From Ilumatobacteraceae bacterium (lineage in GTDB: Bacteria; Actinomycetota; Acidimicrobiia; Acidimicrobiales; Ilumatobacteraceae): DNA of 32,000 bases. How positions within the stretch are numbered: position 1 is the stretch's first letter; each line of letters begins with the position of its first letter. Location of the stretch: assembly GCA_963698565.1 (NCBI GenBank), contig CAVORH010000049.1, positions 1 through 32,000 on the forward strand, in the 5' to 3' direction. Both the position numbers and the translations under genes were made by a program. This document shows, one piece after another, positions 1 to 18,288 of the stretch. The notes under the pieces are model-generated. The model was not told where the DNA came from, made no database searches, and saw only the letters and a program-made list of their open reading frames with translations.

Positions 1-32
1 CGGTTTCGGCGACTTCGTTCCCTGAACCGCCA

Positions 33-860
33 GTGCCTCGGCCCAGTGCCAAGGAGATCAACCCTGGCGAGTGGACCCTCACACCACCAACCGCCGCAAC
101 TCTCTTCCACCTCCCGGATTGGTGGGCGGCCGACGGGGGTTTGAGTGTTCGTCCACGTCTGTTTCCACTGCAGCCCGCCAACCTCATGAGGGGGCGACGC
201 CTTTGCAGGGCATTGCAGCACCAGATTCGACACTGCTTCGAATCAACCGTCCTTGTCGAGAGCGGCGCCGATGGCAACGAATTCATGGCTGAGCTCGTGG
301 CGATTCGAGTCGCCGGTGCCCTTGTACTTATCCAGTCGCTCAATGAGCTTTTCGCAAGCGCGCACCCGCGGACCGCTCCCGAGGATCCATCCTCGTCCCC
401 ATACGAGCGCCACCTCGAAGCTGACGAAGCGGGGCGAGTCGTTGCCGGGCTGAAGCTCATACGAAACGCCGAGACACACGACTCGACTGCGACCCTGGAT
501 TTCGATCTCGACAGAATGGTTACGGCGTTCTTCGACGACGGATCGTCCGGCCTCCGCGTTTTTCCGCAGTGGCGTCAATACGACGACTTGCCTGCATCAA
601 TTGCTCAGAACAAGAAGACCTCACCGAGATTCCACGACCACTACCGACAAGCTGTCGGTGGGACGATCCTGATGGAATCACTTCAAGACTCACTGCGGTT
701 CTTTCTCGACTGTGACGCCCGCATTGCGCGGCTTGCCCTCGGCGGTGAGCCCGCCGAACTGCCGCTGGAGTGCTTCCCGCTGCCTGTAGACCACGTCCAC
801 GGCTACGAGCGTCCGCATCCCTACTGGCCCTCGACGCGAGGGACCCACAGCGCGGAGTAG
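33..860 (+). CDS. hypothetical protein with HEPN-like Rx4H motif (possibly 5'-truncated by the window edge)
   Basis: 275-codon ORF from GTG 33. The same frame has no stop back to nt 3, so the gene may begin left of the window. Motif LIRNAETH (R at 462-464, H at 477-479) fits the R-N-x3-H form of the HEPN RNase signature and follows a helical-looking stretch. No other recognisable domain. Confidence 0.5.
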   Translation: MPRPSAKEINPGEWTLTPPTAATLFHLPDWWAADGGLSVRPRLFPLQPANLMRGRRLCRALQHQIRHCFESTVLVESGADGNEFMAELVAIRVAGALVLIQSLNELFASAHPRTAPEDPSSSPYERHLEADEAGRVVAGLKLIRNAETHDSTATLDFDLDRMVTAFFDDGSSGLRVFPQWRQYDDLPASIAQNKKTSPRFHDHYRQAVGGTILMESLQDSLRFFLDCDARIARLALGGEPAELPLECFPLPVDHVHGYERPHPYWPSTRGTHSAE

Positions 861-944
861 AAGGCGGCCATCAATTATTCGGCGACTGGGGCGTGAACCA
901 TTCCCGGTGGAACGGTCCACCGGCGCCGCCGTCCCGTCGAACCT

Positions 945-2569
945 ATGCTGGCCCCGTGTCACAGGACTTGCCTTGCCATCGGGTGCTTCCTCGCTTCACC
1001 AAGCGGGCTCGAGAACGAGCGCGGAACGGTCAGGGCAGCGATCAACGAGTTCAACGAGGAGGAGGCCTTTGCAAGCAGAGCGGCGTTCATTCCGTTCGGC
1101 TACGAGTCGTCACCTGGAGGTTTCGGTCGTCCGCAGGATGAGATCAACCACACGCTCAGGCAATGCGACTATGCGATCGTTCTGCTCGCTGACCGATGGG
1201 TTCGCCGCCAGGAGGTGACAACGGCTACACGAGCGGGACGGAGGAAGAGTACGAGGAAATCGTGAAGGCGATCGAAGACACTTCTCTCCCCATGCGTGAC
1301 GTGTTAGTCGCGTTCAAGTCGGTTCCTCGCGGTCAGATGGCTGACCCTGGCAAGGACCTCAAGAAGGTCCTCAAGTTCCGCAAGGACCTGGAGAAGAGCC
1401 ACGCGCTCTTCTACAAGCAGTTCGATACGGAGGAGGAGCTGTGCCGTTGGGTGCAGCAGAAGTTACGCGGCGGGGCCCGTTCCGATCTGGGGTGGGGAGG
1501 GGCAATCGCCCGACGATCTCGTGGACGATGCTGCAGATGCGGTGGACGAAGGCCTTCAGTCCTCTGACGAGATGGTCAGCAGAGCCTGGGAACTTGCGTC
1601 CGAGGGTTCGGTTACACAGGCCGAGGTGCTGTTCTCTCGCGCAGTCCGAAACGGCGGCCCCGAAACACTGCTCGAGAGCGCCCGGTTCATGCGCAGACGA
1701 GGACGCCTCGAAGCTGCGTACCAACTCGACCGCGAGTACATCGAGGCAACTGCATCGAAGGATGGCCTGGACATGAGGGTCAATCGGTCCAGAGCGCTCG
1801 CCAACATGGGTGTGGTTCGACGCAAGCAGGGCAATCTCCGAGAATCTAGGGGCCACCTAGTCGAAGCAGTCGCGGTTGCGCGTACTGCTGGACCCGACGG
1901 TGACGTGCCACTCGCGTATGCGCTGGACAACCTTGCACACACCGCTGCCCAGCAGGGAGACCTTGCGACCGCTGAGCACAGCTTGGAGGAAGCGCACTCG
2001 ATACGGGCGAGAGACGACGATCAGGCTGGAATTGCACAGTCGCTTATCAACCTCTCGCTGTCTCAGACGAGCCCGAGGGGACAACGAACTCGCGTTGGAA
2101 CAACTGACGACAGCGATCGGGATTCTTCGCAACTTGAATGGCCAAGAGACTTTGCTAGCCAACGCGCTGGTCGCGGCAGGAGAGGCAGCACTCGATCTCG
2201 AACGACCCGACGCCGAATCAATGGTACGAGAAGGCCTCGACCTGAACGAACGAGTAGCCAACAGTGACGGGATCAGCATTGCTTCCACGGTGCTCGCTCG
2301 CGTCGCCCTGTCTGCGGGGGACATTGACGAGGCGGAGCGGCACGCCGAGCGGACGGCAGAGGAGAGCATCTCATCAACGAACCAAGAGGGCCTGGGCGTT
2401 CTCGCGCACCTGCGGGGTTCGATCGCCCTTGCGCGGGGTGAGTATTCGGCAGCGGTGGAACATCTGGAAGAAGCATTTCGAGCTGTTCGAGCAAACCGGA
2501 TCAGTTCGACGCGCCGATTCCGCGCGGGCGGACCTAGCTACAGCTCGTGCCCGGCTTTCGAATGGCTAG
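945..2569 (+). pseudogene. DUF4062 (TIR/deoxyribosyltransferase-like) - TPR repeat protein, disrupted by about 4 frame changes
   Basis: Sensible protein sequence runs through four ORF-track pieces in different frames. 945-1200 gives CFLASPSGLENERGTVRAAI...CDYAIVLLADRW. ~1199-1500 gives GSPPGGDNGYTSGTEEEYEEIVKAI...ELCRWVQQKL. 1500-2078 and 2078-2476 are TPR-like A/L-rich repeats. 2477-2569 gives ELFEQTGSVRRADSARADLATARARLSNG*. The first two pieces together match the DUF4062 pattern (..ryGs...g.SyTE.Ey..A). Each junction lies at a homopolymer: GGG 1198-1200, G-runs 1470-1503, GGGG 2077-2080, TTT 2476-2478. Confidence 0.6.
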
Positions 2570-3162
2570 GCCTGAATCCAAGTCGCCGACGGCCAAAAGA
2601 AACAGGTGAGCTTGCCGTCCTCGAAAGTTCCGCATCCTGTGTCGATAAAGGCTCGACGGCGATCGACCATTGGTACTCGCGATCCCTGAGGGACGTGACC
2701 GGAGACGTGATATCGGTCGCCGTCGGCGGCGGAGGTCTGGCGCGGGTAGTGCGACGCGAGGATTTCGTTGCCTAAACGGAACTCCGCCTCCAGCGATTGG
2801 AGGAAGCGTCTGTGATCGGGTGATACTGCTGCTACGAACGCCGCTTCCCATTCAGCACCGATCGAAGAGATATAGGACCGGATGGTTGCAGCGCCCCCCA
2901 TCTGCAGAAACGCGTCAAGTCCTCGGCCCTCGAGCGCCGCTCGAAACGCAGCATCATGATTTCCCTCTAGGAAGGTGCACTCCACCGCCGATTGCTCCAG
3001 GCCGACCAGCACATCGAGAACCTGGCAACTGAATCGACCGCGGTTCACGTAGTCCCCGAGGAAGATCAAGCGTTCGACTTCGTCCTCCACGCGACCGAGG
3101 AGGGCCTGAAGACGATCGACGTCTCCATGAATGTCGCCAATGAATCCGAGCCGAGCCGTCAC
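2566..3162 (-). CDS. calcineurin-like metallophosphoesterase (lambda-phosphatase / ApaH-PrpE-like)
   Basis: Motifs GDIHGD, GDYVNRG, GNHD, GGAATIRSY, SGHVP and IDTGCG appear in canonical order. I chose the GTG at 3162 because it forms a GTGA overlap with the upstream stop (3159-3161) and sits 6 codons before GDIHGD. The ORF-track start at 3258 would overlap the upstream gene by 100 nt. Confidence 0.85.
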   Translation of the reverse strand: MTARLGFIGDIHGDVDRLQALLGRVEDEVERLIFLGDYVNRGRFSCQVLDVLVGLEQSAVECTFLEGNHDAAFRAALEGRGLDAFLQMGGAATIRSYISSIGAEWEAAFVAAVSPDHRRFLQSLEAEFRLGNEILASHYPRQTSAADGDRYHVSGHVPQGSRVPMVDRRRAFIDTGCGTFEDGKLTCFFWPSATWIQA

Positions 3163-3443
3163 AGCAGCACCTTCGGCAGAGCTGAGTAGTCGATCTCTGA
3201 ATTCGGGTCTGCGAATGCCAAAGTCGCCATCGTGGCCATCGACCGGTCGCGGTCCCACTCCGCGATGATCAGTTGTTGGATCGTCTCATAGTCAGCACTG
3301 TCGGCGGCGCCGACGAGGACACGCAGCCGGTCCCTCAAGTCGTTGATTTCGCTGACGCCGGGCGTAGGGCCGTCCTCAGGGTCTCTCGACCTCAGCAGCT
3401 CCACTAGTGCCGGATCCTCGAAACGGCGCGCCAACTCACTCAC
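3159..3443 (-). CDS. hypothetical 94-aa acidic protein, no recognisable domain, no His/Cys
   Basis: The ORF is coupled at both ends by 4-nt GTGA overlaps (3440-3443 and 3159-3162) to the nucleotidyltransferase and the phosphoesterase. Coding is inferred from this operon geometry. Confidence 0.6.
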   Translation of the reverse strand: MSELARRFEDPALVELLRSRDPEDGPTPGVSEINDLRDRLRVLVGAADSADYETIQQLIIAEWDRDRSMATMATLAFADPNSEIDYSALPKVLL

Positions 3444-3946
3444 CGAGAAGCATGGCTGACCGAGCGCGAGAGCGGTGAGGTAGATCGCAGATCGAAGGAA
3501 GTATCTCGAGCCACGCGAGCGAGACCCGCTAGAGGAGGATCGACTTGCCGAACACCGACATCGATGATCACGGAGAGGATACGAATCCGCTCAAGACTGG
3601 TAGCCGGATCTGGCTGCCCCATGCGCTGCAGCGCCAGGGTGAGGAACTCCTCCGCCTCATGAAGCACTCGACCATCACGTGCGAGGTGCATACCGAAAAG
3701 TGTGCCTCGCGCATCGAGGAACTGCTTCGGCGTGTAGCAGCTCAGTGTCACATTGCCCCTCACTCGCGTGCCGACTGCAGACTCGGTGACCGCAAGGAGG
3801 TCGAGGTCCGAGGTGTCACAGAAGTCCCCTCGTGCGTAGCTTCCATAGACCATGAGGCCAACGCACTTGTCTGGGAGGAGTGAGACTCCCAAGTTGAGCA
3901 GGTCTCGCGCGCACGTCGAGCGCGTGCAAGCTCGTCCGGACCTCAT
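3440..3946 (-). CDS. Pol-beta superfamily (minimal) nucleotidyltransferase domain protein
   Basis: GLMVYGSYARGDFCDTSDLDLL matches the G-S-x9-13-D-x-D NTase signature. A ~100-aa helical tail follows. The 5' end is uncertain; see the finding on ATG 4091. Confidence 0.75.
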   Translation of the reverse strand: MRSGRACTRSTCARDLLNLGVSLLPDKCVGLMVYGSYARGDFCDTSDLDLLAVTESAVGTRVRGNVTLSCYTPKQFLDARGTLFGMHLARDGRVLHEAEEFLTLALQRMGQPDPATSLERIRILSVIIDVGVRQVDPPLAGLARVARDTSFDLRSTSPLSRSVSHASR

Positions 3947-4105
3947 TGAAGTCGATCCGACTTGTACCCATGCTTCTGGACGCTAGCGGTGGGGCCCGTC
4001 GGCCGGAGGCGGCGAGCCGCACGATTGTCCACCATAAGGAATGAGTCTCGGCAACGGAGTCTTCGGGATGAAACCCGTTGCGGATCGCCATTTCGCGCAC
4101 CTCGG

Positions 4106-4138
4106 CTTCTAACGACTCGTTAGAAGAATCGTTAGAAG
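4106..4138. promoter_or_regulatory. operator-like array: perfect 9-3-9 palindrome plus a third direct copy of the 9-mer
   Basis: CTTCTAACG(4106-4114)-ACT-CGTTAGAAG(4118-4126)-AAT-CGTTAGAAG(4130-4138). The array lies in the least GC-rich 60 nt I counted. It sits between the tRNA terminator and the first possible start codons (4100/4091) of the minus-strand operon. Confidence 0.45.
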
Positions 4139-4151
4139 ATTGCTTGCAGAC

Positions 4152-4192
4152 GCAAGAAAGCCCTGGCGGATCTTGCGATCTACCAGGGCTTT
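4152..4192 (-). terminator. intrinsic terminator downstream of tRNA-fMet
   Basis: On the minus strand: AAAGCCCTGG-ta-GATC-GCAA-GATC-cg-CCAGGGCTTT followed by CTTGCG. This is a 10-bp outer stem, an inner GATC stem with a GCAA tetraloop, and a U-rich tail (UUUCUU). It starts 6 nt after the tRNA 3' end. Confidence 0.6.
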
Positions 4193-4197
4193 CGTAG

Positions 4198-4271
<74 letters not shown>

Positions 4272-4286
4272 TCGAAGTGGAGCATC

Positions 4287-4315
4287 ACTGTACGCCTGCT
4301 GCAGATGATTGACAA
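4287..4315 (-). promoter_or_regulatory. candidate sigma-70/SigA-type promoter for tRNA-fMet
   Basis: Minus strand: TTGTCA (4315-4310), 17-nt spacer, TACAGT (4292-4287). The -10 element ends 15 nt upstream of the mature tRNA 5' end. Confidence 0.5.
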
Positions 4316-4453
4316 CCGCCCGATCCGGCCGGTCGGGGCGTTGGGCCCTGGCCACGGCCGCACCGGTTCCCGATCATGGACTCATGGACGCAACGGCCGC
4401 GTCGGCGTGGACGATGACATCCACCGACCTCGCCTTCATGGTCGACCAGCTGT

Positions 4454-5509
4454 GTGCACAGTTCGACGAGGTCCTCGCTCCGGTCCTCGTCGGACGGCGT
4501 CATCCGGCTGCGAGCTGTCGACGGCGTCGACGAACTCCCATCGGGCGTCGCTGACGACCAGCATCCGGGCGCGTACCGCACCACGACCACCGGTGGGTCG
4601 CTCCGCTTCTCGTACGCGGTCGGGCCGGACTCGTTGAAGGCGATGGTGCACCCGCCCCGCAGCCCGGTCTGGGCGATGACCCGCGATGACACTGGCTCGA
4701 TCTCGGTGAGCGTCGCACCAACACGTCCCGTCCGCCGCGCCGTACTCGGCGCCCGGGCCTGCGACCTCGCCGCCCTCGAGCGTCTCGACCGCACCCAGCT
4801 GGCCGGGCCGCACCCCGACCGCCAACACGCCGCCGCACGTGCCCAGTTGTTCACGATCGGGGTCGACTGTTCCCAACCGGCCGCCACGTGCTTCTGCGAG
4901 TCGACCGGCACCGGCCCATCCGTCGACAGTGGCGCCGATCTGTCGATGACCGAGATGGGCGACGACGTGGTGCAGTACGTGTTGCGCGCCGGATCGGAGC
5001 AGGGCCGCGAGTTCGCCGAGTCGCTCGGGCTCGCGTCCGCGGGAGCCGACGTCGTCGCCGAGGCCGAGCGACTGCGTCGCAGCGTGCACACCACCGAGCG
5101 AGCGATGCCGACGGATGCGGCATCGATCGTGCTGGCCGATCTCGAACACCCACGCTGGGACGACGTGGCCGAACGCTGCCTCACCTGCGGCAACTGCACC
5201 GCCGTGTGCCCGACCTGCTTCTGCACCGACTTGGACGATCGAATGGAGCTCGACGGCCTCACCACCCATCGCGACCGGGTGTGGGACACCTGCTTCAGCC
5301 TGGAGTACTCACACCTCGGCGCCGGGCCCGCGCGCTCGTCGGCTCGCTCGCGGTACCGACAGTGGCTCACCCACAAGCTCGGCACCTGGCACGACCAGTT
5401 CGGCGAATCGGGGTGCGTCGGGTGCGGGCGCTGCATCACCTGGTGCCCCGTCGGCATCGACCTGACCGCCGAGGTCGACGCGCTCGCGACGTCGGGAGTC
5501 ACGCCATGA
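4454..5509 (+). CDS. hyhB: [NiFe]-hydrogenase group-3b-type beta subunit (4Fe-4S, AsrA/HydB-like)
   Basis: Two ferredoxin-type cluster motifs are present: [16 protein letters not shown] and [12 protein letters not shown]. The N-terminal half is AsrA-like ([29 protein letters not shown]). It is first in an ATGA-coupled beta-gamma-small-large order. 4454 is the first in-frame start, but family-like N-terminal sequence continues upstream in another frame from ATG 4414 (see finding). Confidence 0.85.
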
Positions 5510-6420
5510 CCGCCAGGACGACGCCGACCACCCGTTCTCGTGAACTCGTTGCGGAACTATTCCGCAACGAGTTCACGAGAATGGCTACGAGCACCGGCGA
5601 TCCGATGATCGAACCACGCGTCCACGTCGTGCGGTCGGTCACCCCCGAGACCCCGGGCGTGTTCACACTCGACGTCGTCCCGGTCGACGGCGCGCCCACT
5701 CCGTTCCTGCCGGCGCAGGTCAGCATGCTCGGCGCGTTCGGGATCGGCGAGGCGGCGATCTCGATCAGTTCCTCCGCCGCCGTCGATGATCACCACGAGT
5801 ACACGATCCGTCGGGCCGGAGCGATCACCACTGCACTCGGCGCGCTGCGGCCGGGTGACCAGTTGGCGATCCGCGGCCCGTTCGGCCGGCCGTGGGACGT
5901 CGACGCACTGCACGGCGATGTCGTGATCGCAGCCGGCGGCATCGGGCTCGCGCCCTTGCGCTCGGCCGTGTACGCCCTGCTCGACACGATGCAGGAGCGA
6001 CCGCATCGCCGCATCCTGTTGGTCGTCGGTGCCCGCAGCAGCGCAGATCTGCTCTACTCCGGCCAGTACGACGAGTGGCGAGCCCGCGGCATCGAGGTCG
6101 TCTCGACGATCGACACCGCGGAAGCCGGATGGTCGGGTCGGGTCGGGTTCGTACCGGACGTCGCCGCCGACCTCGATGTCGACTGGGCGATCACCGGAGC
6201 ACTGGTGTGCGGCCCCGACGTGATGATGCGACTGACCGCAGACCGCTTCATCGACCTCGGCGTCGCGCCCGGCTCGATCCAGCTGACGCTGGAACGGAAC
6301 ATGCAGTGCGCGACCGGCCGCTGCGGCCATTGCCAGCTCGGGCCGGTGCTGGTGTGCCGCGACGGCCCGGTGATGACCTATCCCGAGATCGCCGACGCGC
6401 TGCGGGTGCGGGAGCGCTGA
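5506..6420 (+). CDS. hyhG: hydrogenase gamma subunit (FAD/NAD(P)-binding oxidoreductase with C-terminal 2Fe-2S)
   Basis: ATG 5506 overlaps the beta stop (ATGA) and has GGGAG 7 nt upstream. The protein has a ferredoxin-reductase-type fold pattern ([26 protein letters not shown]). A C-terminal [20 protein letters not shown] cluster motif is present. The 4888 start in the ORF track was rejected. Confidence 0.85.
5535..5581. repeat. perfect 47-bp palindrome (22-bp arms, 3-nt centre) inside the first 26 codons of hyhG
   Basis: TTCTCGTGAACTCGTTGCGGAA-CTA-TTCCGCAACGAGTTCACGAGAA, verified base by base. It is about 45% GC in a ~67% GC context. Confidence 0.95.
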
Positions 6421-6430
6421 GGAGGCCACG

Positions 6431-7204
6431 ATGGAGGAACGACGACCGACCCTGGCGGTGTGGAAGTTCGCTTCGTGCGACGGATGCCAGCTCAGCCTGC
6501 TCGACTGCGAGGACGAACTGCTCGCCGTGGCCGACCGTGTCGCCATCTCCTACTTCCCCGAGGCCACCTCCACGATGGTCGAGGGTCCGTACGACGTCTC
6601 GCTCGTCGAGGGCTCGATCACGACCGCGCACGACGCCGAGCGCATCCTCGAGATCCGGCGCCAGTCGGGACTGCTCGTCACCATCGGTGCGTGCGCCACC
6701 GCCGGCGGCATCCAGGCCCTGCGGAACGGTGCCGACATCGCCGAGTTCACCTCGATCGTGTACGCCCACCCCGAGTACATCTCCACGCTCGCAACCTCCA
6801 CGCCGATCGCCGACCACGTCGACGTCGACCTCGAACTCCGCGGCTGCCCGATCGACCGTCGCCAGCTCGTCGCCACGATCGCCGCTCTACTGAACCGCCA
6901 CGTACTGCGGCTGCCGACCACCAGCGTGTGCACCGAATGCAAGGCGGCGTCGACGAGCTGCGTGATGGTGGCCCACGGCACCGCCTGCCTCGGACCGATC
7001 ACCCAGGCCGGCTGCGGGGCGCTGTGCCCGTCGTTCCACCGCGGCTGCTACGGGTGCTTCGGGCCGATGGAGGACCCGAACATCCCCGCGCTCGAGCACC
7101 GACTCGACCAACTCGGGATCGAACCGGAGGCGATCGATCGCCTGATGCGCACCTTCGACGTCGAGGCCTTCGCCCGCATCGCAGCCGAAGGAGCCCGGCC
7201 ATGA
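6431..7204 (+). CDS. hyhS: [NiFe]-hydrogenase small (delta) subunit, group 3 type
   Basis: The N-terminal [15 protein letters not shown] and [10 protein letters not shown] proximal-cluster motifs are present. C-terminal Cys clusters are [28 protein letters not shown] and CYGCFGP. Confidence 0.9.
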
Positions 7205-8517
7205 CCCACAAGTCACTCGACCTGCACGTGCCGACGCTCACCCGCGTCGAGGGCGAAGGGGCGATGCACGTCGTCGTCCGCGACGGCGTGGTCGAGGACG
7301 TCCAGCTCGAGATCTACGAGCCACCCCGCATGTTCGAGGCCTTCCTGCGCGGGCGGGCGCACCACGAACCCGTCGACATCACGGCGCGGATCTGCGGGAT
7401 CTGCCCGGTCGCCTACCAGATGAGCGCGGCCCACGCGATCGAACGGCTCGCCGGTGTGAGCGTCGACGGGCCGATCCGCGACCTGCGACGCCTGCTCTAC
7501 TGCGGCGAGTGGATCGAGAGCCACGTCCTGCACATGGCGTTCCTGCACGCACCGGACTTCCTCGGTGTCGACTCCGGGATCACGATCGCCCGGCAGGAAC
7601 CCGAGCTGATGACCGAGGTGCTGCACCTCAAGAAGACCGGCAACCGGATCATGGAGGTCGTCGGCGGACGTCCGATCCATCCGGTCAACGTGCGCCTCGG
7701 CGGGTTCTACCGGGCGCCGAGCCGGCGAGAGCTCCACGCCCTCGACGCCGACCTCGAACGGGCCCACGCCGCCGCGGTCGCTCTCGTCCGCTGGGTCGCC
7801 GGATTCGAATTCCCCTCGATCCCCGACCGCCTGGCCGAACACACCGAGTTCGTGTCGCTGCGTCACCCGCACGAGTACCCGCTCAACGAGGGCCGCATCG
7901 TGTCGAACCTCGGCCTCGACCTCGACGTCACCGAGTACGGCGAACGGCTCCGTGAGATCCACGTCGAACACTCGACCGCGCTGCACGCCACTCTCGACGG
8001 TGATCGTCGCTACCAGGTCGGCCCGCTCGCACGTTGGATGAACAACTTCGACCTGCTCACCGACTCGGTGCGCGACCTCGCCGGCGAGGTCGGCATCGGC
8101 GAGGTGGAGACCAACCCGTTCCGCAGCATCATCGTGCGGGGCCTGGAGACGGTGTGGGCGCTCGAGGAAGCCCAGCGCATCATCGACGCCTACACCCCGC
8201 CGCCCGAACCCGCCGTCGAGGTACCGCCCGTCGCCGGCACCGGGCAGGCAGCGACCGAGGCCCCGCGGGGCCTGCTCTACCACCGCTACGAACTCGACGA
8301 TGCCGGCATCATCGCCGACGCCGTGATCGTGCCACCCACCTCGCAGAACCAGATCGCGATCGAGGCCGACCTGCGCGACTTCGTGCAGTCACACCTCGAC
8401 CTCGACGACCACACGCTCGGTCACCGCTGCGAGCAGGTGATCCGCAACTACGACCCGTGCATCTCCTGCGCGACCCACTTCCTGCGCTTCAGCAGCGACC
8501 GGATCGGCGACCGATGA
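7201..8517 (+). CDS. hyhL: [NiFe]-hydrogenase large (alpha) subunit, group 3b type
   Basis: ATG 7201 overlaps the small-subunit stop (ATGA). The N-terminal Ni-binding motif RICGICP and C-terminal DPCISCATH are present, as is LTRVEGEG near the N-terminus. The 438-aa length fits group 3. The 6460 start in the track was rejected. Confidence 0.92.
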
Positions 8518-8972
8518 CCACGATCGTGATCGGCGTCGGCAACCGCGACCGCGGTGACGATGCCGTCGGCCCGATCGTGTGCGACCGGCTGCGCGCGCGG
8601 TACCCCGCCGACGCCCCCCTGCGGGTGATCGTGTGTGAGGGCTCGATCCTCGATCTCGCGCTCCACTGGCAGTCCGACGATCACGTGGTGATCGTCGACG
8701 CGATGCAGCCCGGCACGGCGCCGGGACGTGTCGTGACCTTCGACGCGACGGCGGAGCCGCTGCCGACGCCCGGGGCGGTGTCGACCCACGAGATCGACGT
8801 GTCGGTCGCGATCGAACTCGCCCGGGCGATCGGACGGATGCCGGCGCAGCTGCTCCTGATCGGCGTCGAAGCCGCACAGACCGAGTGGGGAACCCCACCC
8901 AGCCCGCCGGTCGACGCCGCGATCGAGGCCGTCGTCGACGAGTTCGTTCGCGACCACCTCGCCATGCGATGA
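8514..8972 (+). CDS. hydrogenase maturation endopeptidase (HycI/HoxW-like)
   Basis: ATG 8514 overlaps the large-subunit stop (ATGA). [19 protein letters not shown] is the typical GxGNxxxxDDxxG start of this protease family. Length is 152 aa. Confidence 0.85.
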   Translation: MTTIVIGVGNRDRGDDAVGPIVCDRLRARYPADAPLRVIVCEGSILDLALHWQSDDHVVIVDAMQPGTAPGRVVTFDATAEPLPTPGAVSTHEIDVSVAIELARAIGRMPAQLLLIGVEAAQTEWGTPPSPPVDAAIEAVVDEFVRDHLAMR

Positions 8973-9009
8973 GTTTCCGGGCCACCCCTCGGCCACGAAT
9001 CTCATCGCA
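8965..9009. terminator. hairpin between convergent genes (possible bidirectional terminator)
   Basis: TGCGATGAG (8965-8973) pairs with CTCATCGCA (9001-9009). An inner TTC/GAA pairing is also possible. It overlaps the endopeptidase stop codon. There is no clear U-tract. Confidence 0.35.
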
Positions 9010-9044
9010 GCGCAGTCGTTCGCTGGGCTCGGGGTGATTCGGGC

Positions 9045-9770
9045 TCAACCGGCGGCGAACGTCGCCAGCTGATCGAGCGTCGTCCGCCGCAGGCGATCGA
9101 GCTGTTGCGGGCGCAGCCGCTCGCACACCGTGCTCCAGTGCAGCGCCACCCAATCACCCACCTCGACAGCGATCGGACTCGTCACCTGTTCGATCACCGG
9201 CTCGCCGAAGCACAGCCGGCTGCCCTCCCACACCAGTGGCCGGCGGCGCGCCAGTGGCACGCCGGCACTGATGTCGACCACCTGCGCCCAGCTGACGCAA
9301 CACTGGTCGACGATGCGCAACGGTTCGTCGACGACGCCACGGCGCATCAACCCCGTCCACGGGGTGACGTGGAGTACGTGGTAGCTGTGGTGCGCGACGC
9401 CGACAGCGACGGACTCGTCGATCCGCGACCATGCTGATCCGGCCCGTCGCCGGAAACGCGCATCGATCGAGTTGCCGAAGTCGTGCACGCTCACCCGGTC
9501 GAGTAGCCCGTTGCCGATCCAGTACGCCTCGACCACGTCGGCGTCGAGTGGGTCGATGCGGTGTGCGGCACCGGCGAGCAACTCGAGGTACGGGTACGCG
9601 CCTTCGAACTGTGCAGCCAACTCGGCGAACCCCCCATCGATCGGTGCATGCAGGTACTCGCCGACGCCCCCGGACGAGACCGGACCACAGTGGCCGAGCC
9701 GGTTGGGAGGCGATGCGAACCGGACGAACCGCAACGGCCCGGAGGGCGCGTCGGGGGTTGCGGCGGGCAT
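9045..9770 (-). CDS. conserved hypothetical protein with HypC/HupF-like C-terminal segment
   Basis: ATG 9770 lies 2 nt after the upstream DMT stop. The 384-aa ORF-track version is an Arg-rich extension overlapping that gene, so I rejected it. N-terminal FVRFASPPNRLGHCGP is a motif I associate with hydrogenase-linked unknowns. The C-terminal CCVSWAQVVDIS...VEVGDWVALHWSTVCERL resembles the HypC pattern C-x3-P-x-VV-x-I ... vGDyVLvH. Confidence 0.6.
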   Translation of the reverse strand: MPAATPDAPSGPLRFVRFASPPNRLGHCGPVSSGGVGEYLHAPIDGGFAELAAQFEGAYPYLELLAGAAHRIDPLDADVVEAYWIGNGLLDRVSVHDFGNSIDARFRRRAGSAWSRIDESVAVGVAHHSYHVLHVTPWTGLMRRGVVDEPLRIVDQCCVSWAQVVDISAGVPLARRRPLVWEGSRLCFGEPVIEQVTSPIAVEVGDWVALHWSTVCERLRPQQLDRLRRTTLDQLATFAAG

Positions 9771-9772
9771 GA

Positions 9773-10747
9773 TCACGACGCCAGCCCGTGCGACGGCCGG
9801 GCCGGCACGCCGCGGCGAGCCGACGACGCGACGACCACGAGGACACCGGCGAGCACGACGAGGTAGCCGACGGCATCGACGGTGATCGGCACGCCTCGCA
9901 ACCCGCTGTTCAGCACGGCCGTCACCACCGCACCGGCGACGAGCACGGCGGTGACATCGGTGGCGGGCGCCATGGCGAGCGCTCGGTACCAGAGCGTCAC
10001 GAAGACACCGAGCGTCGTGCCGGTGACGGCGATCCACCACCACTGCCCGACCGTGAACCCGGCGAGCGCGCCGAGTTCGCCACGGGCGGCGAGCCATGCG
10101 AGCAACAGCGCCGCGCCTCCGAGCATGCGCACCACCGCCAGCCACCGCGCCGGGACCGTCGCCAGCAGGCGCTTGACGACGAGCACCTCGAGCGCCCACG
10201 CCAGGGTGGCAACGAGGATCAACAGCTCACCACGGCCGACACCCGAGATGCTGACACCGCCGCTGACGACGATGTGGCCGACGACCAGCAACGCGATCGC
10301 CAGCAGGTGTGCTGGCCGCAATCGCTCGTGCAGCACGACCGCGGCGCCGACGGCGACCCAGACGACGAGCGTCTTGTGGATGAATGCCGCATCGTTCGAT
10401 GTCGCGAGTGCGAGCCCCTCGAAGAACAGGACGAACGGCACGGCACCACCGATCACGGCAACCACGGCCAACCACGGCCACGTGGACCGACCGATCGATC
10501 CGGGCCGTTGCGCGGCCGGAACCGGCAGCACGACGAGCACGACCGTCAGCAGCACCCCGGCCCAGAGATTCTTGGCGGTCGTGTAAACCGTCGCGTCGTC
10601 GAAGTGACGCACCGCCAGTCCGTTGACGAACACGGCGACGCCGCTGACCAGCGCGGCCACGACCGCGGGCCAGAGCGGCCAGCGATCGCCACGGGCGGAG
10701 ACCGGCGTCGTGGCGCCAGCCCGATCGTTCTGCACCGACGTAGTCAT
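9773..10747 (-). CDS. DMT-superfamily (EamA-like) transporter
   Basis: The protein has about 10 hydrophobic helices in two EamA-like halves. ATG 10747 overlaps the hypC stop (ATGA). Confidence 0.8.
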   Translation of the reverse strand: MTTSVQNDRAGATTPVSARGDRWPLWPAVVAALVSGVAVFVNGLAVRHFDDATVYTTAKNLWAGVLLTVVLVVLPVPAAQRPGSIGRSTWPWLAVVAVIGGAVPFVLFFEGLALATSNDAAFIHKTLVVWVAVGAAVVLHERLRPAHLLAIALLVVGHIVVSGGVSISGVGRGELLILVATLAWALEVLVVKRLLATVPARWLAVVRMLGGAALLLAWLAARGELGALAGFTVGQWWWIAVTGTTLGVFVTLWYRALAMAPATDVTAVLVAGAVVTAVLNSGLRGVPITVDAVGYLVVLAGVLVVVASSARRGVPARPSHGLAS

Positions 10748-10977
10748 GTCCTCGCGTCCTCCTGTTCGAACGGATGCACGGCGTCGCCCAACTCCGAGTC
10801 GTCGGTGATCGCCAGCACGAACCCCATCGAGACGATCACGACATCGCCTGGTCGGACCGCCGCACCCTCGGCGAGCACCACGTCGAGCGACGCCGTCACC
10901 TCACGGCCGGCGAACTCGACGACGGCGCGCCGCTCGTCGAGCAGCCCGAGGACGCGGCCCACCTCACCCAGGCACAT
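10744..10977 (-). CDS. hypC: hydrogenase assembly chaperone HypC/HupF
   Basis: The start was set at ATG-TGC (10977) because HypC requires an N-terminal Met-Cys. The sequence is MCLGEVGRVLGL...AVVEF.G...ASLDVV...VRPGDVVIVSMGFVLAI, 77 aa. Confidence 0.85.
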   Translation of the reverse strand: MCLGEVGRVLGLLDERRAVVEFAGREVTASLDVVLAEGAAVRPGDVVIVSMGFVLAITDDSELGDAVHPFEQEDART

Positions 10978-11075
10978 GACGAACACCAGCCGTCCGCGTC
11001 GACGGTCCCATGACCTCACCCAACTGCGTGCGAGCCACCGGGGCCAGTGCCGAACGACCCTCTCGTACGAGCCGG

Positions 11076-11838: not shown

Positions 11839-12783
11839 GTGACCACCACACCTGCCGACACGTCCAGCGCGGCAGCCGCCGACGCCCGGGACCTGTCACG
11901 GGGCTTGATCGGCGCCGGCATCGCCGTGTGCGCCTGGTCGACCGGCACCATCCTGGCCAAGTACATCGACATGGGCAGCCTGGCGATCGGCTTCTACCGA
12001 TTCCTGTTCTTCGCCGTGATGATCATCGTCTGGATGTACGCGCAGGGCACGCCGTTCCGCCTGCGAGTGATGCGCGACTCGCTGTGGGGCGGCATCGCGC
12101 TCGGCGCCGACATCGCCCTGTTCTTCTCGGCGGTGAAGCTCACCAGCGTCGTCAATGCCACGATCATCGGCTCGATGCAACCGATCGTCGTCGGAGTGAT
12201 CGCCGCCAAGTTCTTCGGCGAGAGGATCGGCATGCGCAACGTGTTGTGGTCGCTCGTCGCTCTCTGCGGCACGATCGTCGTGGTCGCATCGTCAGCCGGT
12301 GGCGACGGCAACGACTGGCTCGGCGACCTGCTCGCACTGGCCGCGATGCTGTCGTGGAGCGCCTACTTCATCACCTCGAAGAACTCGAAGAAGACCATGA
12401 CCTCGACCGAGTTCACCGCTGGCACGGCATTGTGGACGGTGATCATCTGCGCTCCGCTGGGGCTCGCATTCGGGCAGGACATGACGTGGCCGTCGCTGTC
12501 GAACTGGGGGCTGCTGATCGTGATGGCTGTCAGCTCCGGCCTGATCGGCCACGCGATGATGAACTGGTCGCTGGTGCGTATCCCACTCTGGGTCGGCTCC
12601 ACGTTCACCCTCCTGATCCCCGTGTTCTCCGCGCTGCTCGCCTGGCTGGTGCTCGGCGAGGCCGTCACGGCGATACAGGGTCTCGCGATGGCCGTGGTGA
12701 TCGGTGCGCTCGCCGTGGTCGTTCGCAACCAATCCCAGCCTGCTCCTGCCGCACCGACTGAACCACCAACCCCGTTTGCGTGA
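11839..12783 (+). CDS. DMT-superfamily (EamA-like) transporter
   Basis: The protein has ten predicted helices and EamA-like repeats. I preferred GTG 11839 because the ORF-track start 11785 overlaps the divergent nitroreductase start. The start remains uncertain. Confidence 0.75.
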   Translation: MTTTPADTSSAAAADARDLSRGLIGAGIAVCAWSTGTILAKYIDMGSLAIGFYRFLFFAVMIIVWMYAQGTPFRLRVMRDSLWGGIALGADIALFFSAVKLTSVVNATIIGSMQPIVVGVIAAKFFGERIGMRNVLWSLVALCGTIVVVASSAGGDGNDWLGDLLALAAMLSWSAYFITSKNSKKTMTSTEFTAGTALWTVIICAPLGLAFGQDMTWPSLSNWGLLIVMAVSSGLIGHAMMNWSLVRIPLWVGSTFTLLIPVFSALLAWLVLGEAVTAIQGLAMAVVIGALAVVVRNQSQPAPAAPTEPPTPFA

Positions 12784-12830
12784 CGACTTCCGGTGGGCCG
12801 CCCCACCGAGAACTCGACGCAAACGGGGTT
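12768..12830. repeat. ~63-bp nested-hairpin intergenic repeat, copy A
   Basis: The outer stem pairs AACCCCGTTTGCGT (12768-12781) with ACGCAAACGGGGTT (12817-12830). The inner stem pairs CGGTGGG (12791-12797) with CCCACCG (12802-12808). The left arm also encodes the last 4 codons and the stop of the DMT gene. A homologous copy lies at 18984-19044. Confidence 0.85.
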
Positions 12831-12846
12831 GACGGCTGGCGGCGGG

Positions 12847-13596
12847 TCAGGCGACGTCGCGTCGACGTACGGCGACCGCGCCGAGCAGGGCCGGAACGAG
12901 TGCCCACACCAACAGCGCCAGCGCAGCAGCAGGGGCTGTCACCTCTGCTTCGACGCCTGACAGGTCGAGCGCCAGGCTCGCCGGGATCCACGACGCCGTC
13001 GAGCTGACCAGCTGCACGAGCATCGGCGGCGCCACGATCAGCACGAGCACGGCCCCGGTCACGGCACCACCGACGTTGCGGACCACGATGCCGATCCCGG
13101 CACCCAACACCGCCCCAACTGCCCCGGCGAACGCAGAGGCGCCGACCACTCGCAGGACGTCGAGCACCGGGACCAGGAATCCGTACTCGGTGGTCGGCAG
13201 CGTCACCGCCACGGCGAACGTCGTGATGCCGGCGCCCGCTGCGCCCAACACTCCGCCGCCGATCGCGATCGCGACCAGCTGGGCGACGACCGCACGTCGG
13301 CGCTGCGGATCCGCGAGGAACGTCGGGATCACCGTCTGGTGCGCGTACTCACGCGCCGCCGCGATCGCCCCGAAGAGTCCGGCGATCATCGTGGCGTTGA
13401 CCGCGAACGCGATCAACGACTGCTGGTCGGCGGCGGTCGACACGAACGTCTTGCTGCCGTCGAAGTCGGTGCCGAACGCCACCGATGCGGCGTTGATGCC
13501 ACCCATCGTCAGCAGCACCAGCAGGAACGCCCACGGCATCCGCGTGGTCGTCAACTTCATCAGCTCTGCTCGAACCGAACGTTGCATCGGGCTCAT
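12847..13596 (-). CDS. ABC-2 type transporter permease
   Basis: ATG 13596 shares one nt with the ATPase stop (TGATG). The protein has six hydrophobic helices. The N-terminus MSPMQRSVRAELMKLTTTRMPW is typical of ABC-2 permeases. Confidence 0.75.
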   Translation of the reverse strand: MSPMQRSVRAELMKLTTTRMPWAFLLVLLTMGGINAASVAFGTDFDGSKTFVSTAADQQSLIAFAVNATMIAGLFGAIAAAREYAHQTVIPTFLADPQRRRAVVAQLVAIAIGGGVLGAAGAGITTFAVAVTLPTTEYGFLVPVLDVLRVVGASAFAGAVGAVLGAGIGIVVRNVGGAVTGAVLVLIVAPPMLVQLVSSTASWIPASLALDLSGVEAEVTAPAAALALLVWALVPALLGAVAVRRRDVA

Positions 13597-14546
13597 CACA
13601 CGACCTCCTTCGACACGTCCTGCTCCTCGGCGGACACCGCTGGCCCGGCGCCCGCCTGCTGCGTCCACCGCATGAACAGGTCCTCGAGCGACCCTGACCG
13701 GGTGCTCAACTCCGAGACCTCGACCCCGTGACCGAACGCGATGTGGCCGATCTCGGCGAGGCCGAGACCGCGCACCAGCAGCGATCCGGGGTCTCCCTCG
13801 ATCCCGGCCGACTCGACGTCTGCACCCGCCCCTCGCAGCGCTTCGGCCAGTGCGAGTGCGTGAGGCGAGCTCACGAGGGCGGTCTCGTGGCGCAGCTCGG
13901 CGAGGGGACCGCTCGTGATGAGCCGCCCTCGGTTGATCACCACGACGTCGTCGACGAGGTGCTCGACCTCACCGAGCAGGTGGCTCGACACGAACACCGT
14001 GTCGCCTCTCGCCGCCCGCTGCCGCAGCAACTCGCGCAGCTCGCGAACGCCCTGCGGGTCGAGACCGTTGCCCGGCTCGTCGAGCACGAGCACCGGCGGG
14101 TCGCACAGCAGTGCCGCCGCGAGGCCGAGCCGCTGGCGCATGCCGAGCGAGTAGGTCCCCGCACGTCGATCCGCGGCGTCGGTCAACCCTGCGGCGACCA
14201 GCGACTCCTCCACACGTCGTTCCGGAACACCGGCGGCGCAGGCGAGGATGCGGAGGTGATCGCGCCCCGAGCGGCCGGGGTGGAACGCGTTGGTCTCCAA
14301 CGCGGCGCCGACCGTGGCGCTCGGATCGTCGAGTTCCACGTATGCACGATCGCCGACACGGGTCGAACCACCGTCGACTGCAGCGAGGCCGAGCAGCATC
14401 TTCATCGTCGTCGACTTCCCCGATCCGTTCGGACCGAGGAACCCCGTGACCCGTCCGGGCGCAACCATGAACGACAGGTCGTCGACCACGGTGCGGTCGC
14501 CGTAGCGCTTGGTGACGTGGTCGACGACCAGTGGGATCCCAGTCAT
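13596..14546 (-). CDS. ABC transporter ATP-binding protein
   Basis: Walker A GPNGSGKST, signature YSLGMRQRL and Walker B VLVLDEP are present. ATG 14546 overlaps the upstream hydrolase stop (ATGA). Confidence 0.9.
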   Translation of the reverse strand: MTGIPLVVDHVTKRYGDRTVVDDLSFMVAPGRVTGFLGPNGSGKSTTMKMLLGLAAVDGGSTRVGDRAYVELDDPSATVGAALETNAFHPGRSGRDHLRILACAAGVPERRVEESLVAAGLTDAADRRAGTYSLGMRQRLGLAAALLCDPPVLVLDEPGNGLDPQGVRELRELLRQRAARGDTVFVSSHLLGEVEHLVDDVVVINRGRLITSGPLAELRHETALVSSPHALALAEALRGAGADVESAGIEGDPGSLLVRGLGLAEIGHIAFGHGVEVSELSTRSGSLEDLFMRWTQQAGAGPAVSAEEQDVSKEVV

Positions 14547-16171
14547 GACTCCTCCGTTCCGGTGGTCGGTGTGGTCATCTCCAGCACCGTGTCGGTCATG
14601 TAGTCGACGAACTCGTCGGGCTGCTCCCACAAGGGGCGATGACCCGAGGTGTCGAACTCGACGCGGTCGACGATCGGTGCCTCGATCATCGGGTACCAGT
14701 CGTCGAACACCTCTGCTCGACCGTCGGCCTCATGGGCCCCCTGCACGAAGAACATCGGCACCTCGAACTCGGTGGCCGACTCGCGGAAGTCGATGTCCTG
14801 CAGTTGCGGGTAGAGCGCCGCGAACGTGTCCATGAACGCCGGCAGCACGTGCAGTTGATCGAGAAGCGTGTACTCCGACACGAGCAGGTTCTCCGACATC
14901 TGGCCTTCGCCTTCGGAGTTCCGACTGTGGTCGTAGCCGTAGACGTCCTGCTCGTGCGACAGGGCGGTCTCGTAGTCGAGCATCCGGTCGTACGGGGGAG
15001 GTCCGATGTCGCGCAGTTCGCCGGCGAGGTCGTCGCGCCCGGTCGCCTCGGCCCACTCGAGCGTGTCGGCGTAGAACCGGCGGTCGGTCTCGAGTTGGCT
15101 GACCATCTGACCGGTGCCGATGAACGCCCGGTACAGCTCGGGCCGCTCCTGCACCGCCAGCACACCGAGCGTGGTGCCCCACGACTGACCGACCAGGTAG
15201 ATCTGCTCGGTCTCGAACCGATCGATCAGGTACTCCGTGACGACGATGGTGTCGTCGACCGATCCGTCGAGCGTGATCGTGTCGGTCGGGTCGAGTTCCG
15301 AATACGACGTGCCACTCCCCCGCTGGTCCCAGGTGGCGACGGTGAAGTGCTCCTCGAGTTCGGGGAGGTGGCGACGCATGGCCCCGTACTCCGACCCACC
15401 GGGCCCACCGGCGAGGAACAGCAGCACCGGGTTGCCGACGCTGTGGCCGCGGACCATCAGGCCGAGGTCGTGGCCGTTGACGTCGATCCGTGTCAACTCG
15501 GCGACGCTGCCGGGGATCACCTTGCCATCAGCATCACGGATCGCCGCCGTGCCCGCCGGTCGCAGCAGCGCGACCGAGAACACGAACAGTGCAACCGCCG
15601 TGAGCCCGGTCGCGACCCGACGGAGTATCACGCCGAACCGACGGCCGGCCGGACGATCCGACGACATCCGCACGGTGATCCAGCGGGCGGCGCCGGCACC
15701 GAGTGCGGCACCGAGCACCATCGGCACGAGCGAGAGCAGGCCGTGCACACCACGCCCGAGCACCAGTGCCAGCAGCCCGTAGCTGCTGAGCTCGAGGCCG
15801 TCCACGCTCGGCCCGCCGACGTCGAGCCGCACGAGTTCGAACATCGCCGCGAAGGCGACCGGGGCGATCAGCATCGCCCAGCGAGACCGGGCGGCAAGCC
15901 CGGCGGACGCACCCACCAGCAAGCTGACGAGGAGCGACGTCATCGCCGCGCCGGTGGTCAGCGGACCTCGGGGCATCCACGACCCGGCGACGAGACCCCA
16001 GAGAGCACCCGGCGCGGCGGCGACGGCAAGCGCCCAGCGAGTGCGGCTCCACAACGGCAGGAGCCGCTCGCCGAGCCGACTTCCCAGGTCATCGACCTTC
16101 GTCCGCCGCCGGGTGGGGAACGACGGGGCCGTGGCAGCACCGGGTCGGTCGGTGGATCGGAACGTCGTCAT
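14543..16171 (-). CDS. membrane-anchored alpha/beta-hydrolase (proline-iminopeptidase-like) with polytopic N-terminal domain
   Basis: The nucleophile elbow GQSWG and the oxyanion region LFLAGGPGGS are present, plus WDQRGSG. About 5 hydrophobic helices precede the hydrolase fold. I chose ATG 16171 (or GTG 16174) because GAGGAGG lies 5-8 nt upstream on the minus strand. Confidence 0.75.
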   Translation of the reverse strand: MTTFRSTDRPGAATAPSFPTRRRTKVDDLGSRLGERLLPLWSRTRWALAVAAAPGALWGLVAGSWMPRGPLTTGAAMTSLLVSLLVGASAGLAARSRWAMLIAPVAFAAMFELVRLDVGGPSVDGLELSSYGLLALVLGRGVHGLLSLVPMVLGAALGAGAARWITVRMSSDRPAGRRFGVILRRVATGLTAVALFVFSVALLRPAGTAAIRDADGKVIPGSVAELTRIDVNGHDLGLMVRGHSVGNPVLLFLAGGPGGSEYGAMRRHLPELEEHFTVATWDQRGSGTSYSELDPTDTITLDGSVDDTIVVTEYLIDRFETEQIYLVGQSWGTTLGVLAVQERPELYRAFIGTGQMVSQLETDRRFYADTLEWAEATGRDDLAGELRDIGPPPYDRMLDYETALSHEQDVYGYDHSRNSEGEGQMSENLLVSEYTLLDQLHVLPAFMDTFAALYPQLQDIDFRESATEFEVPMFFVQGAHEADGRAEVFDDWYPMIEAPIVDRVEFDTSGHRPLWEQPDEFVDYMTDTVLEMTTPTTGTEES

Positions 16172-16252
16172 CACGTGAACCTCCTCGCTTTCTTGCATCG
16201 ACTCTCCGCCTCGGCGGCGTCGATGTCGTCCCCCGCCGGCGGTGATCCGCGT

Positions 16253-16305
16253 CATCCCCGAGGGGGATGCGACGCACCAGGGACGATCCCTCGTGAGGGG
16301 GATGC
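16253..16305. promoter_or_regulatory. candidate operator repeats in the divergent hydrolase / sensor-kinase control region
   Basis: There is a perfect 7-3-7 palindrome CATCCCC-GAG-GGGGATG (16253-16269). The 11-mer GAGGGGGATGC occurs twice (16260-16270 and 16295-16305), 35 bp apart. The second copy is preceded by an imperfect partner, ATCCCTC. Confidence 0.4.
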
Positions 16306-18253: not shown

Positions 18254-18288
18254 GCGAGCCGGATCAGCCTGAACGAACGGTCGGACCC

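Follow-up and report, generated by a model that had tools for sequence, protein, structure and literature searches.

A low-GC segment beside the initiator tRNA gene of an Ilumatobacteraceae genome: a probable acquired island with an apparently decayed nucleotidyltransferase/phosphoesterase/NIR-TPR cassette

Introduction

How did a stretch of markedly low GC content come to lie beside the initiator tRNA gene of an uncultured Ilumatobacteraceae bacterium, and what do the genes within it encode? The stretch forms the left end of the window analyzed here, i. e., the first 32 kb (32,000 nucleotides) of contig C49 in a 4.31-Mb metagenome-assembled genome (MAG) of 51 contigs, referred to as G000 (completeness 89 %, contamination 6.8 %, both estimated). 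An earlier note on this DNA had regarded everything to the left of the tRNA-fMet gene as an accessory segment, possibly a genomic island, filled with defense- or toxin–antitoxin-type domains. The analysis described below leads us to a related but altered picture: with a probability of roughly 0.75, positions 1–4070 are the tRNA-proximal part of an acquired island that holds a decayed cassette of three genes, encoding a HalB-like nucleotidyltransferase (NTase), a metallophosphoesterase, and a protein with DUF4062 (NIR) and TPR parts, together with a truncated gene of an uncharacterized family.

Composition and Rarity of the Segment

1–4070, no strand: low-GC accessory cargo; 61 % GC, without a DNA match in 53 genus genomes, running off the contig start

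The GC content of positions 1–4150 is 61.0 %, as compared to a genome mean of 68.5 % (standard deviation 1.5; z=−4.9 among 8217 windows of 4150 bp), and only 0.02 % of these genome windows reach a value as low, the sole lower place being the end of contig C11. In 500-bp bins, GC amounts to 60–63 % in all bins up to 4500 and to 64–72 % in nearly all beyond, with a step from 61 % to about 69–70 % at roughly 4300. Tetranucleotide usage points the same way, as the L1 distance of 1–4070 from the genome gives z=+6.6 (rank 8 of 2074). Both measures bear out the proposal of the earlier note that the left segment is compositionally distinct; its GC spot counts of 57 % and 45 % correctly indicated lower GC, but represent local lows around a real level of 61 %. 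It had also been observed that the segment reaches the left edge of the window, and this edge is indeed the start of contig C49.

None of the 53 other genomes of the genus matches the DNA of 1–4070. The only part of the region that is common to the genus is the flank of the tRNA gene, with similarity to G004, G031, and G012 reaching 4070/4071, to four other genomes 4115, and to several more the hairpin only (4149–4196). Synteny, which had been proposed as a check on the island, likewise shows that the segment is absent from relatives, which carry other cargo at the same site. The NTase family itself was found in none of 200 further Ilumatobacteraceae genomes (61 genera; 139 of the 200 of high quality), and the G000 genome holds no paralogue.

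The Three-Gene Cassette and Its Probable Decay

3159–3946, minus strand: HalB-like NTase gene, about 262 amino acids (aa), frameshifted; one frame change at 3503–3506, outside a homopolymer
2566–3162, minus strand: calcineurin-like metallophosphoesterase (ApaH / lambda NinI-like), 198 aa; intact, GTG start at 3162
945–2569, plus strand: DUF4062(NIR)-TPR gene, broken, convergent with the NTase and phosphoesterase genes; pieces in frames 3, 2, 3, 1
3–860, plus strand: truncated gene of an uncharacterized family with the R-N-x3-H motif LIRNAETH (R at 462–464, H at 477–479), termed the Rx4H open reading frame (ORF) below

The gene content had previously been listed as five separate items. The domains were largely recognized correctly, whereas the parsing was partly wrong, as four of the five belong to one three-gene cassette. 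This is most evident for the NTase, which had been taken for a minimal nucleotidyltransferase (MNT) followed by an orphan 94-aa protein. Homologues of the 168-aa NTase ORF are 260–270 aa long and align with both window ORFs (residues 25–155 of protein P0001 with the 168-aa ORF, residues 178–268 with the 94-aa ORF). Intact homologues run without a break across the frame change at 3503–3506, and the conserved family motif PCFSV-ELA is read after it. The two supposed genes are therefore a single broken one of about 262 aa, and the 94-aa ORF (3159–3443) is its C-terminal third. The best NCBIfam model for this protein is that of Hailong HalB (NF051895), with 58 bits for the window copy and 75.5–83.7 bits for intact homologues against a cut-off of 190. 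In the PDB, the best matches of the family profile are likewise the HalB structures 9dbh, 9dbj, and 9dbi (E about 1e-15 over 178 positions), which score far ahead of MNT-type proteins. The NTase furthermore carries a GSx10DxD signature and has a weak MntA match (21 bits, cut-off 60).

The start of the phosphoesterase gene overlaps the NTase stop, and the phosphoesterase is translationally coupled to the NTase. Its motifs GDIHGD, GDYVNRG, and GNHD are kept, so that the lambda-type phosphoesterase of the earlier note stands as an intact ApaH / lambda NinI-like protein. On the opposite strand, the DUF4062-TPR gene had been given the right domains; however, it is one frameshifted gene in at least four frame segments, with changes from frame 3 to 2 near 1199, from 2 to 3 within 1480–1563, from 3 to 1 near 2057–2068, and possibly from 1 to 2 near 2500. 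All of its pieces match single ORFs of 481–581 aa in homologues. The Pfam model PF13271 reaches 20.8 bits on the window piece (cut-off 24.7), the domain being split by a frame change, and a weak precomputed match to the same model is present in the homologue at locus L040. The GYTSGTEEE motif (about 1226–1252) is kept and aligns with near-invariant TE-E columns of 35 homologues. Three 2026 preprints describe DUF4062, renamed NIR, as a TIR-like NADase effector in the Swarozyc, Evangelion, Avs2, Vulcan, and Vesta systems, and it is from these preprints that a catalytic role of the conserved Glu motif is taken. With a TIR-like NADase domain and an NTase whose nearest solved relative is HalB, the suspected defense-type content of the segment is supported.

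Three of the four genes in the segment, namely the NTase, the DUF4062-TPR gene, and the Rx4H ORF, are broken or truncated in the assembly. Compared with its best relative P0057 (514 aa, 55 % identical), the Rx4H product lacks about 110 N-terminal residues, which would lie off the contig, as well as a C-terminal domain of about 130 aa. With frameshifts in the NTase and NIR-TPR genes and a shortened gene beside them, the copy of the cassette in G000 is most likely an inactive remnant.

A different explanation of the breaks, which we consider unlikely, is that the cassette is intact and working and that low coverage or a mixture of strains at the contig end led to frame errors in the assembly or consensus. 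The segment does lie at a contig end of a MAG, the catalytic motifs are kept in all three cassette proteins, and some of the frame changes in the assembly fall in short G runs (TGGG near 1199, G4 runs in 1480–1563). Yet at least four frame changes lie within 3 kb, whereas none occurs in the core genes at 11–26 kb, which are full length when checked against orthologues. Short G runs are moreover the most that any break site offers; the breaks at 2057–2068 and 3503–3506 lie in no run at all, and the sole run of at least six bases in 1–4300 sits inside the intact gene. An indel error could also not cause the loss of a whole domain from the Rx4H ORF, and a relative, G061, has split cargo genes at the same tRNA site as well.

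Distribution of the Cassette in Other Genomes

The layout of the cassette, in which the NTase gene is followed by the phosphoesterase gene and both converge on the DUF4062-TPR gene, recurs at loci L038/L039, L040, and L041. Among 46 loci in named genomes, mostly of Actinomycetota and one of Caldilineaceae, about 40 have it. In two Promicromonospora loci, the third gene is placed upstream instead. In 36 of 38 loci, the GC content of the cassette lies below that of its flanks, the mean difference being 7.1 points. In L045, L059, and L061, the NTase gene is preceded by a tRNA gene at a distance of about 300 bp, and an integrase gene, with or without a tRNA gene, is found near the cassette in L053, L060, L061, L068, and L071. 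Further neighbors include a type I restriction R subunit (L044), an AAA_21-DUF4435 gene (L053), a PemK pair (L038), and TniQ/transposase genes (L040).

In a maximum likelihood tree of NTase plus phosphoesterase, the cassettes fall into two deep clades, each mixing Mycobacterium, Nocardioides, Micromonosporaceae, and Pseudonocardiaceae, and the Chloroflexota copy is nested among actinobacterial ones. The window cassette groups with Mycobacterium, Nocardioides, and metagenome copies (support 98/90), apart from L045 and L044 and from the Ilumatobacteraceae and Acidimicrobiales copies.

Locus L045 belongs to an independently assembled MAG from another Ilumatobacteraceae genus. It contains an identical tRNA-fMet gene, a hairpin, TTCTAACGG twice, and then a distant relative of the window cassette, in the same orientation after the tRNA-fMet gene as in the window and with 38–43 % aa identity. 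That the same cassette type stands at the same tRNA gene in L045 shows that its position in the window is no accident of assembly.

The Initiator tRNA Gene as an Integration Site

4197–4271, minus strand: initiator-type tRNA-Met(CAT) gene, no encoded CCA; ARAGORN and Rfam (start 4197/4198)
4287–4315, minus strand: promoter-like site TTGTCA-17-TACAGT, just upstream of the tRNA gene
4150–4193, minus strand: hairpin followed by UUUCUU; −31.9 kcal/mol, z=−6.1; kept in many genus genomes
4106–4138, no strand: 9-mer array CGTTAGAAG; direct at 4118 and 4130 (12-bp spacing), inverted at 4106
4071–4103, no strand: short stretch shared with G004, G031, and G012 (82–94 % identity); similarity ends abruptly at 4070/4071

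The tRNA-fMet gene, initially placed at 4198–4271, was confirmed by both programs and shows the hallmarks of an initiator, that is, a C1xC72 mismatch and three G-C pairs in the anticodon stem. Its 3′ end faces the low-GC segment. The segment, which had been described as abutting the tRNA gene, accordingly lies on its 3′ side, but the cargo junction, where similarity breaks off sharply, is found at 4070/4071, 127 bp past the tRNA end, and not at the tRNA end itself. Between the two lie the hairpin, a probable terminator of the tRNA gene, and the 9-mer array.

The 3′ side of the tRNA-fMet gene differs in every relative examined and is a proven integration hot spot among them. In G011, a complete 9-kb integrated element (L030:8316–17390) has its integrase gene about 230 bp from the tRNA gene and, 9 kb away, an exact 45-bp repeat of tRNA positions 31–75, the att core in relatives. 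Further partial tRNA-fMet copies are present in G003 and G005. The one in G003 (L106:2100–2900) lies 15.8 kb from the full gene and begins a second element, which has a hairpin unlike the first, GTCTACCG repeats, and a fragment of a G011-type integrase; this indicates tandem accretion of elements. In G005, G052, G012, and G061, an orthologous integrase gene converges on the tRNA gene at a distance of 0.15–4 kb; it ends about 60–100 bp from the 9-mer repeats in G005 and 2.5–4 kb from the tRNA gene in the other three. The cargo in between comprises Fic/DOC in G052, RelA_SpoT, an M78 peptidase, and an XRE regulator in G012, and the above-mentioned split genes, for AAA and S8 peptidase proteins, in G061. 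The suggestion that this tRNA gene serves as an integration point is hence well founded, given the integrases and the 45-bp att repeat at the same tRNA in relatives.

The CGTTAGAAG motif is found nowhere else in the G000 genome, and variants of it are kept after the tRNA-fMet gene in relatives regardless of the cargo beyond. In G005, repeats of this type adjoin the 3′ end of the integrase gene. The 9-mers follow the tRNA copy on the integrase side, whereas the terminal partial tRNA copy in G005 has the hairpin and lacks the repeats. This distribution favors candidate arm-type integrase sites over an operator of the NTase operon.

Exchange of island cargo appears to be recent in at least one case. 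A 4-kb block beside the integrase at the G052 tRNA-fMet gene (L090:4343–8350) is 95 % identical to C6:32340–36346 and to the start of C9 in G000, although the two genomes are otherwise only about 75–80 % identical. The G000 copies of this block extend over C6:31629–36579, within an island at a tRNA-Pro gene, and C9:1–4037. As it matches the cargo of the G052 tRNA-fMet island, the start of C9 is a candidate for the continuation of the C49 island, a link that is unproven. Three other contigs were considered and set aside. The C11 end (53–57 % GC) and the C16 start (low GC, by a tRNA-Arg gene) are other island ends with no demonstrable link to C49, and C7 matches the left flank in G003 but lies in core DNA of normal GC content. 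A metagenome scan with the Rx4H ORF, aimed at extending the contig, returned one short irrelevant match, and an exact-protein look-up found nothing on record.

Acquisition Weighed against Its Alternatives

We favor the reading that a horizontally acquired island lodged at the 3′ side of the tRNA-fMet gene, at a site that integrase-driven elements reuse in relatives; its integrase gene and far att site would lie beyond the contig end or have been lost. The cargo would comprise (i) the truncated R-N-x3-H gene and (ii) the mobile unit of NTase, coupled phosphoesterase, and convergent NIR-TPR genes.

Several observations weigh against this reading. The segment reaches the end of its contig, in a MAG whose contamination is put at 6.8 %. 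Integrase searches of 1–4400 gave noise only (E>0.07), and the 51-contig assembly has no full-length orthologue of the fMet-type integrase, its sole trace being an N-terminal fragment at C6:36242–36579. Likewise, neither the tRNA 3′ end nor the junction was found again in the window or in the 51 contigs, where only similarity to tRNA T-arms and 14-mers turned up. Neither integrase nor att repeat had been visible from the start, and both the window and the whole assembly agree; site-specific delivery is accordingly inferred from relatives only. Host sequence, instead of arm sites of an element, might also account for the 9-mer repeats. No system in the segment is recognized by PADLOC, which lacks a model for the cassette and gave a weak PDC-S60 match only. 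The literature consulted reports no experiment on the cassette. Finally, the L045 cassette sits on a long, poorly placed branch of the tree, and its presence at the same tRNA gene could also reflect old vertical inheritance with many losses. The original genomic-island proposal thus stands with regard to acquisition and site, while integrase and att are unproven in G000 and the cargo appears decayed rather than working.

That last possibility can be widened to the whole segment, which would then be an old, vertically inherited variable region of the family whose low GC content stems from relaxed selection on dying genes. Besides L045, with its similar hairpin and 9-mer repeats, the missing integrase and att repeat in G000 are compatible with this view. 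It nevertheless appears improbable in light of the patchy distribution (NTase in 0 of 200 family genomes, segment DNA in 0 of 53 genus genomes) and of the divergence between the window and L045 cassettes, as the window cassette, with 38–43 % aa identity to L045, is no closer to it than to Mycobacterium or Actinoplanes copies, while core proteins are 47–72 % identical. The tree also separates the two, and low GC marks the cassette in 36 of 38 unrelated hosts as well, in which its genes are unbroken.

Very improbable, in turn, is a chimeric assembly or binning artefact at about 4070. The contamination estimate and the sharp change in similarity and composition near 4070–4300 might be read in this way, but the junction falls within one contig and no repeat occurs there, the independent MAG with L045 has the same cassette type, orientation, and tRNA, and equally sharp cargo junctions occur at the same place in relatives.

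The Rx4H ORF

The family of the Rx4H ORF comprises 69 relatives (full HMMER search). Across 27 of its sequences, R154 and H159 are invariant and N155 is nearly so. No sequence match to the ORF was found in Pfam, NCBIfam, PHROG, or PDB, and a Foldseek search with its AlphaFold model (pLDDT 69) gave neither a HEPN nor any other match at E below 0.2, so that its HEPN nature is a lead only. Relatives are neighbored by integrases, by a ThsB-TIR/caspase pair together with conjugation genes, by a ScoMcrA-like HNH gene, or by a type III restriction system; the family travels on mobile elements. As it is absent from all 50 other cassette loci, it represents separate cargo.

The idea of an MNT-HEPN toxin–antitoxin pair, present or former, formed by the NTase and this ORF could draw on the GSx10DxD signature, the weak MntA match (21 bits vs. 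60), and the invariant R-N-x3-H motif, but is scarcely credible, since the two genes are on opposite strands, are separated by 2.6 kb and by other genes, do not co-occur (0 of 50 other cassette loci), and combine an NTase of about 262 aa, whose best family and structure matches are HalB, with a model that has no significant HEPN or other fold match.

Possible Function and Relation to Known Systems

By analogy, the cassette may be an anti-phage module. In such a module, a nucleotide or oligonucleotide signal from the NTase would be processed or cleared by the phosphoesterase, and the NIR domain would act as an NAD+-degrading effector with the TPR part as sensor or regulatory element; this scheme of NTase signal, phosphoesterase turnover, and TPR-gated NADase is an analogy only. 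In Hailong, as the work of Tan et al. (2025) is summarized in PMC13434031, the HalA ion channel is held shut by oligo-dA from HalB for as long as no phage nuclease has removed the oligo-dA. It is possible rather than probable, and put forward tentatively, that the cassette is an undescribed anti-phage system reusing the logic of Hailong with another effector. A constitutive NTase would then produce a short (deoxy)oligonucleotide that is trimmed or turned over by the phosphoesterase, TPR-bound signal would restrain the NADase, and a phage nuclease would set NAD+ depletion free. The paired loss of NTase and NADase in the window would fit such a guard-and-effector dependency.

The likeness to Hailong consists in the NTase, whose nearest family model and solved structures are those of HalB over nearly the whole HalB length, and in a compact operon with a putative effector. 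In contrast, 58–84 bits against a cut-off of 190 make the NTase no HalB equivalog, it has an extra C-terminal region of about 60 aa, and no HalA-like membrane protein occurs at any cassette locus examined, the partners being the metallophosphoesterase and DUF4062-TPR. With the NIR systems (Swarozyc, Evangelion, Avs2-NIR, Vulcan, Vesta), the cassette shares an N-terminal DUF4062 with the conserved Glu motif and a low-GC mobile context. Vulcan (NIR-HEAT) also fuses DUF4062 to helical repeats, which in the cassette, however, are TPR, and Vesta (NIR plus alkaline phosphatase) also has a phosphatase partner, which in the cassette is calcineurin-like. Unlike the NIR systems, the cassette has a HalB-like NTase as obligatory third gene; a term search of the main texts of the three NIR preprints did not find “nucleotidyltransferase”.

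Islands inserted at tRNA genes by tyrosine integrases (lambda/P4-style attL-int) resemble the segment in their position 3′ of the tRNA gene, foreign composition, and accessory conflict genes, and relatives add an integrase by the tRNA gene, a 45-bp direct repeat, and tandem accretion. The segment differs from them in that no integrase or att is seen in G000, the break lies 127 bp past the tRNA gene, and the genes are decayed. As regards MNT-HEPN (type VII) systems, the segment does contain a Pol-beta-type NTase signature as well as an Rx4-6H-like motif, but in genes that are not adjacent, co-oriented, or co-inherited, with a HalB-like 262-aa NTase and no support for a HEPN fold.

While the island itself is routine, the cassette is a candidate for a widespread but undescribed variant of NIR/Hailong-type defense modules. 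It is compact and defined, conserved in about 40 named, mostly actinobacterial genomes, and joins two modules characterized only in 2025–2026, outside the scope of PADLOC. Its hosts include culturable Mycobacterium, Nocardioides, Microbacterium, Streptosporangium, and Rhodococcus strains, which makes laboratory tests feasible. The initiator tRNA gene of an uncultured Ilumatobacteraceae genus, moreover, emerges as a busy docking site at which integrase elements stack and swap conflict cargo, some of it 95 % identical between species, and this helps to interpret other contig ends in these MAGs.

Other Observations in the Window and Genome

An ORF on the minus strand at 3816–4100 was judged not to be a gene, as only its first 10 codons are conserved in relatives, after which the reading diverges. 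These codons (VREMAIR..F) are kept in G004, G031, and G012 and are followed there by unrelated sequence; they may represent a gene stub or a short conserved signal at the cargo junction. Apart from the tRNA, no internal repeats or RNA families were found in the segment.

Elsewhere in G000, the last 2.8 kb of contig C11 (C11:150500–153276, i. e., L001:10500–13276) have the lowest GC content of the genome (53–57 %). Contig C16 begins with a low-GC stretch (C16:1–4500, L002; 61–65 %) that ends at a tRNA-Arg(CCT) gene (3726–3801, minus strand); laid out like the C49 start, it probably represents another island interrupted by the end of its contig. Within it, C16:3041–3715 is 86 % identical to C9:3978–4653. 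Of 12 tyrosine integrases in G000, seven lie 0.3–1.2 kb downstream of a tRNA gene on the same strand (Thr twice, Pro twice, SeC, Gly, Ala), and another is cut by the start of contig C1. Judging from the integrases beside tRNA genes, G000 is rich in tRNA-linked islands.

On the 5′ side of the tRNA-fMet gene, most relatives have orthologues of window 11.1–12.7 kb, which adjoin it directly in six other genus members. The hydrogenase operon (window 4335–11065) adjoins the tRNA gene only in G000 and its closest relative G003; being absent there in the six other members, the operon is itself an insertion at this locus, despite its normal GC content. Finally, window 12750–18320 is a second variable block, without a counterpart between the orthologues of 11.1–12.7 kb and those of 18.3–26 kb in G018, G017, G007, G011, G016, and G002.

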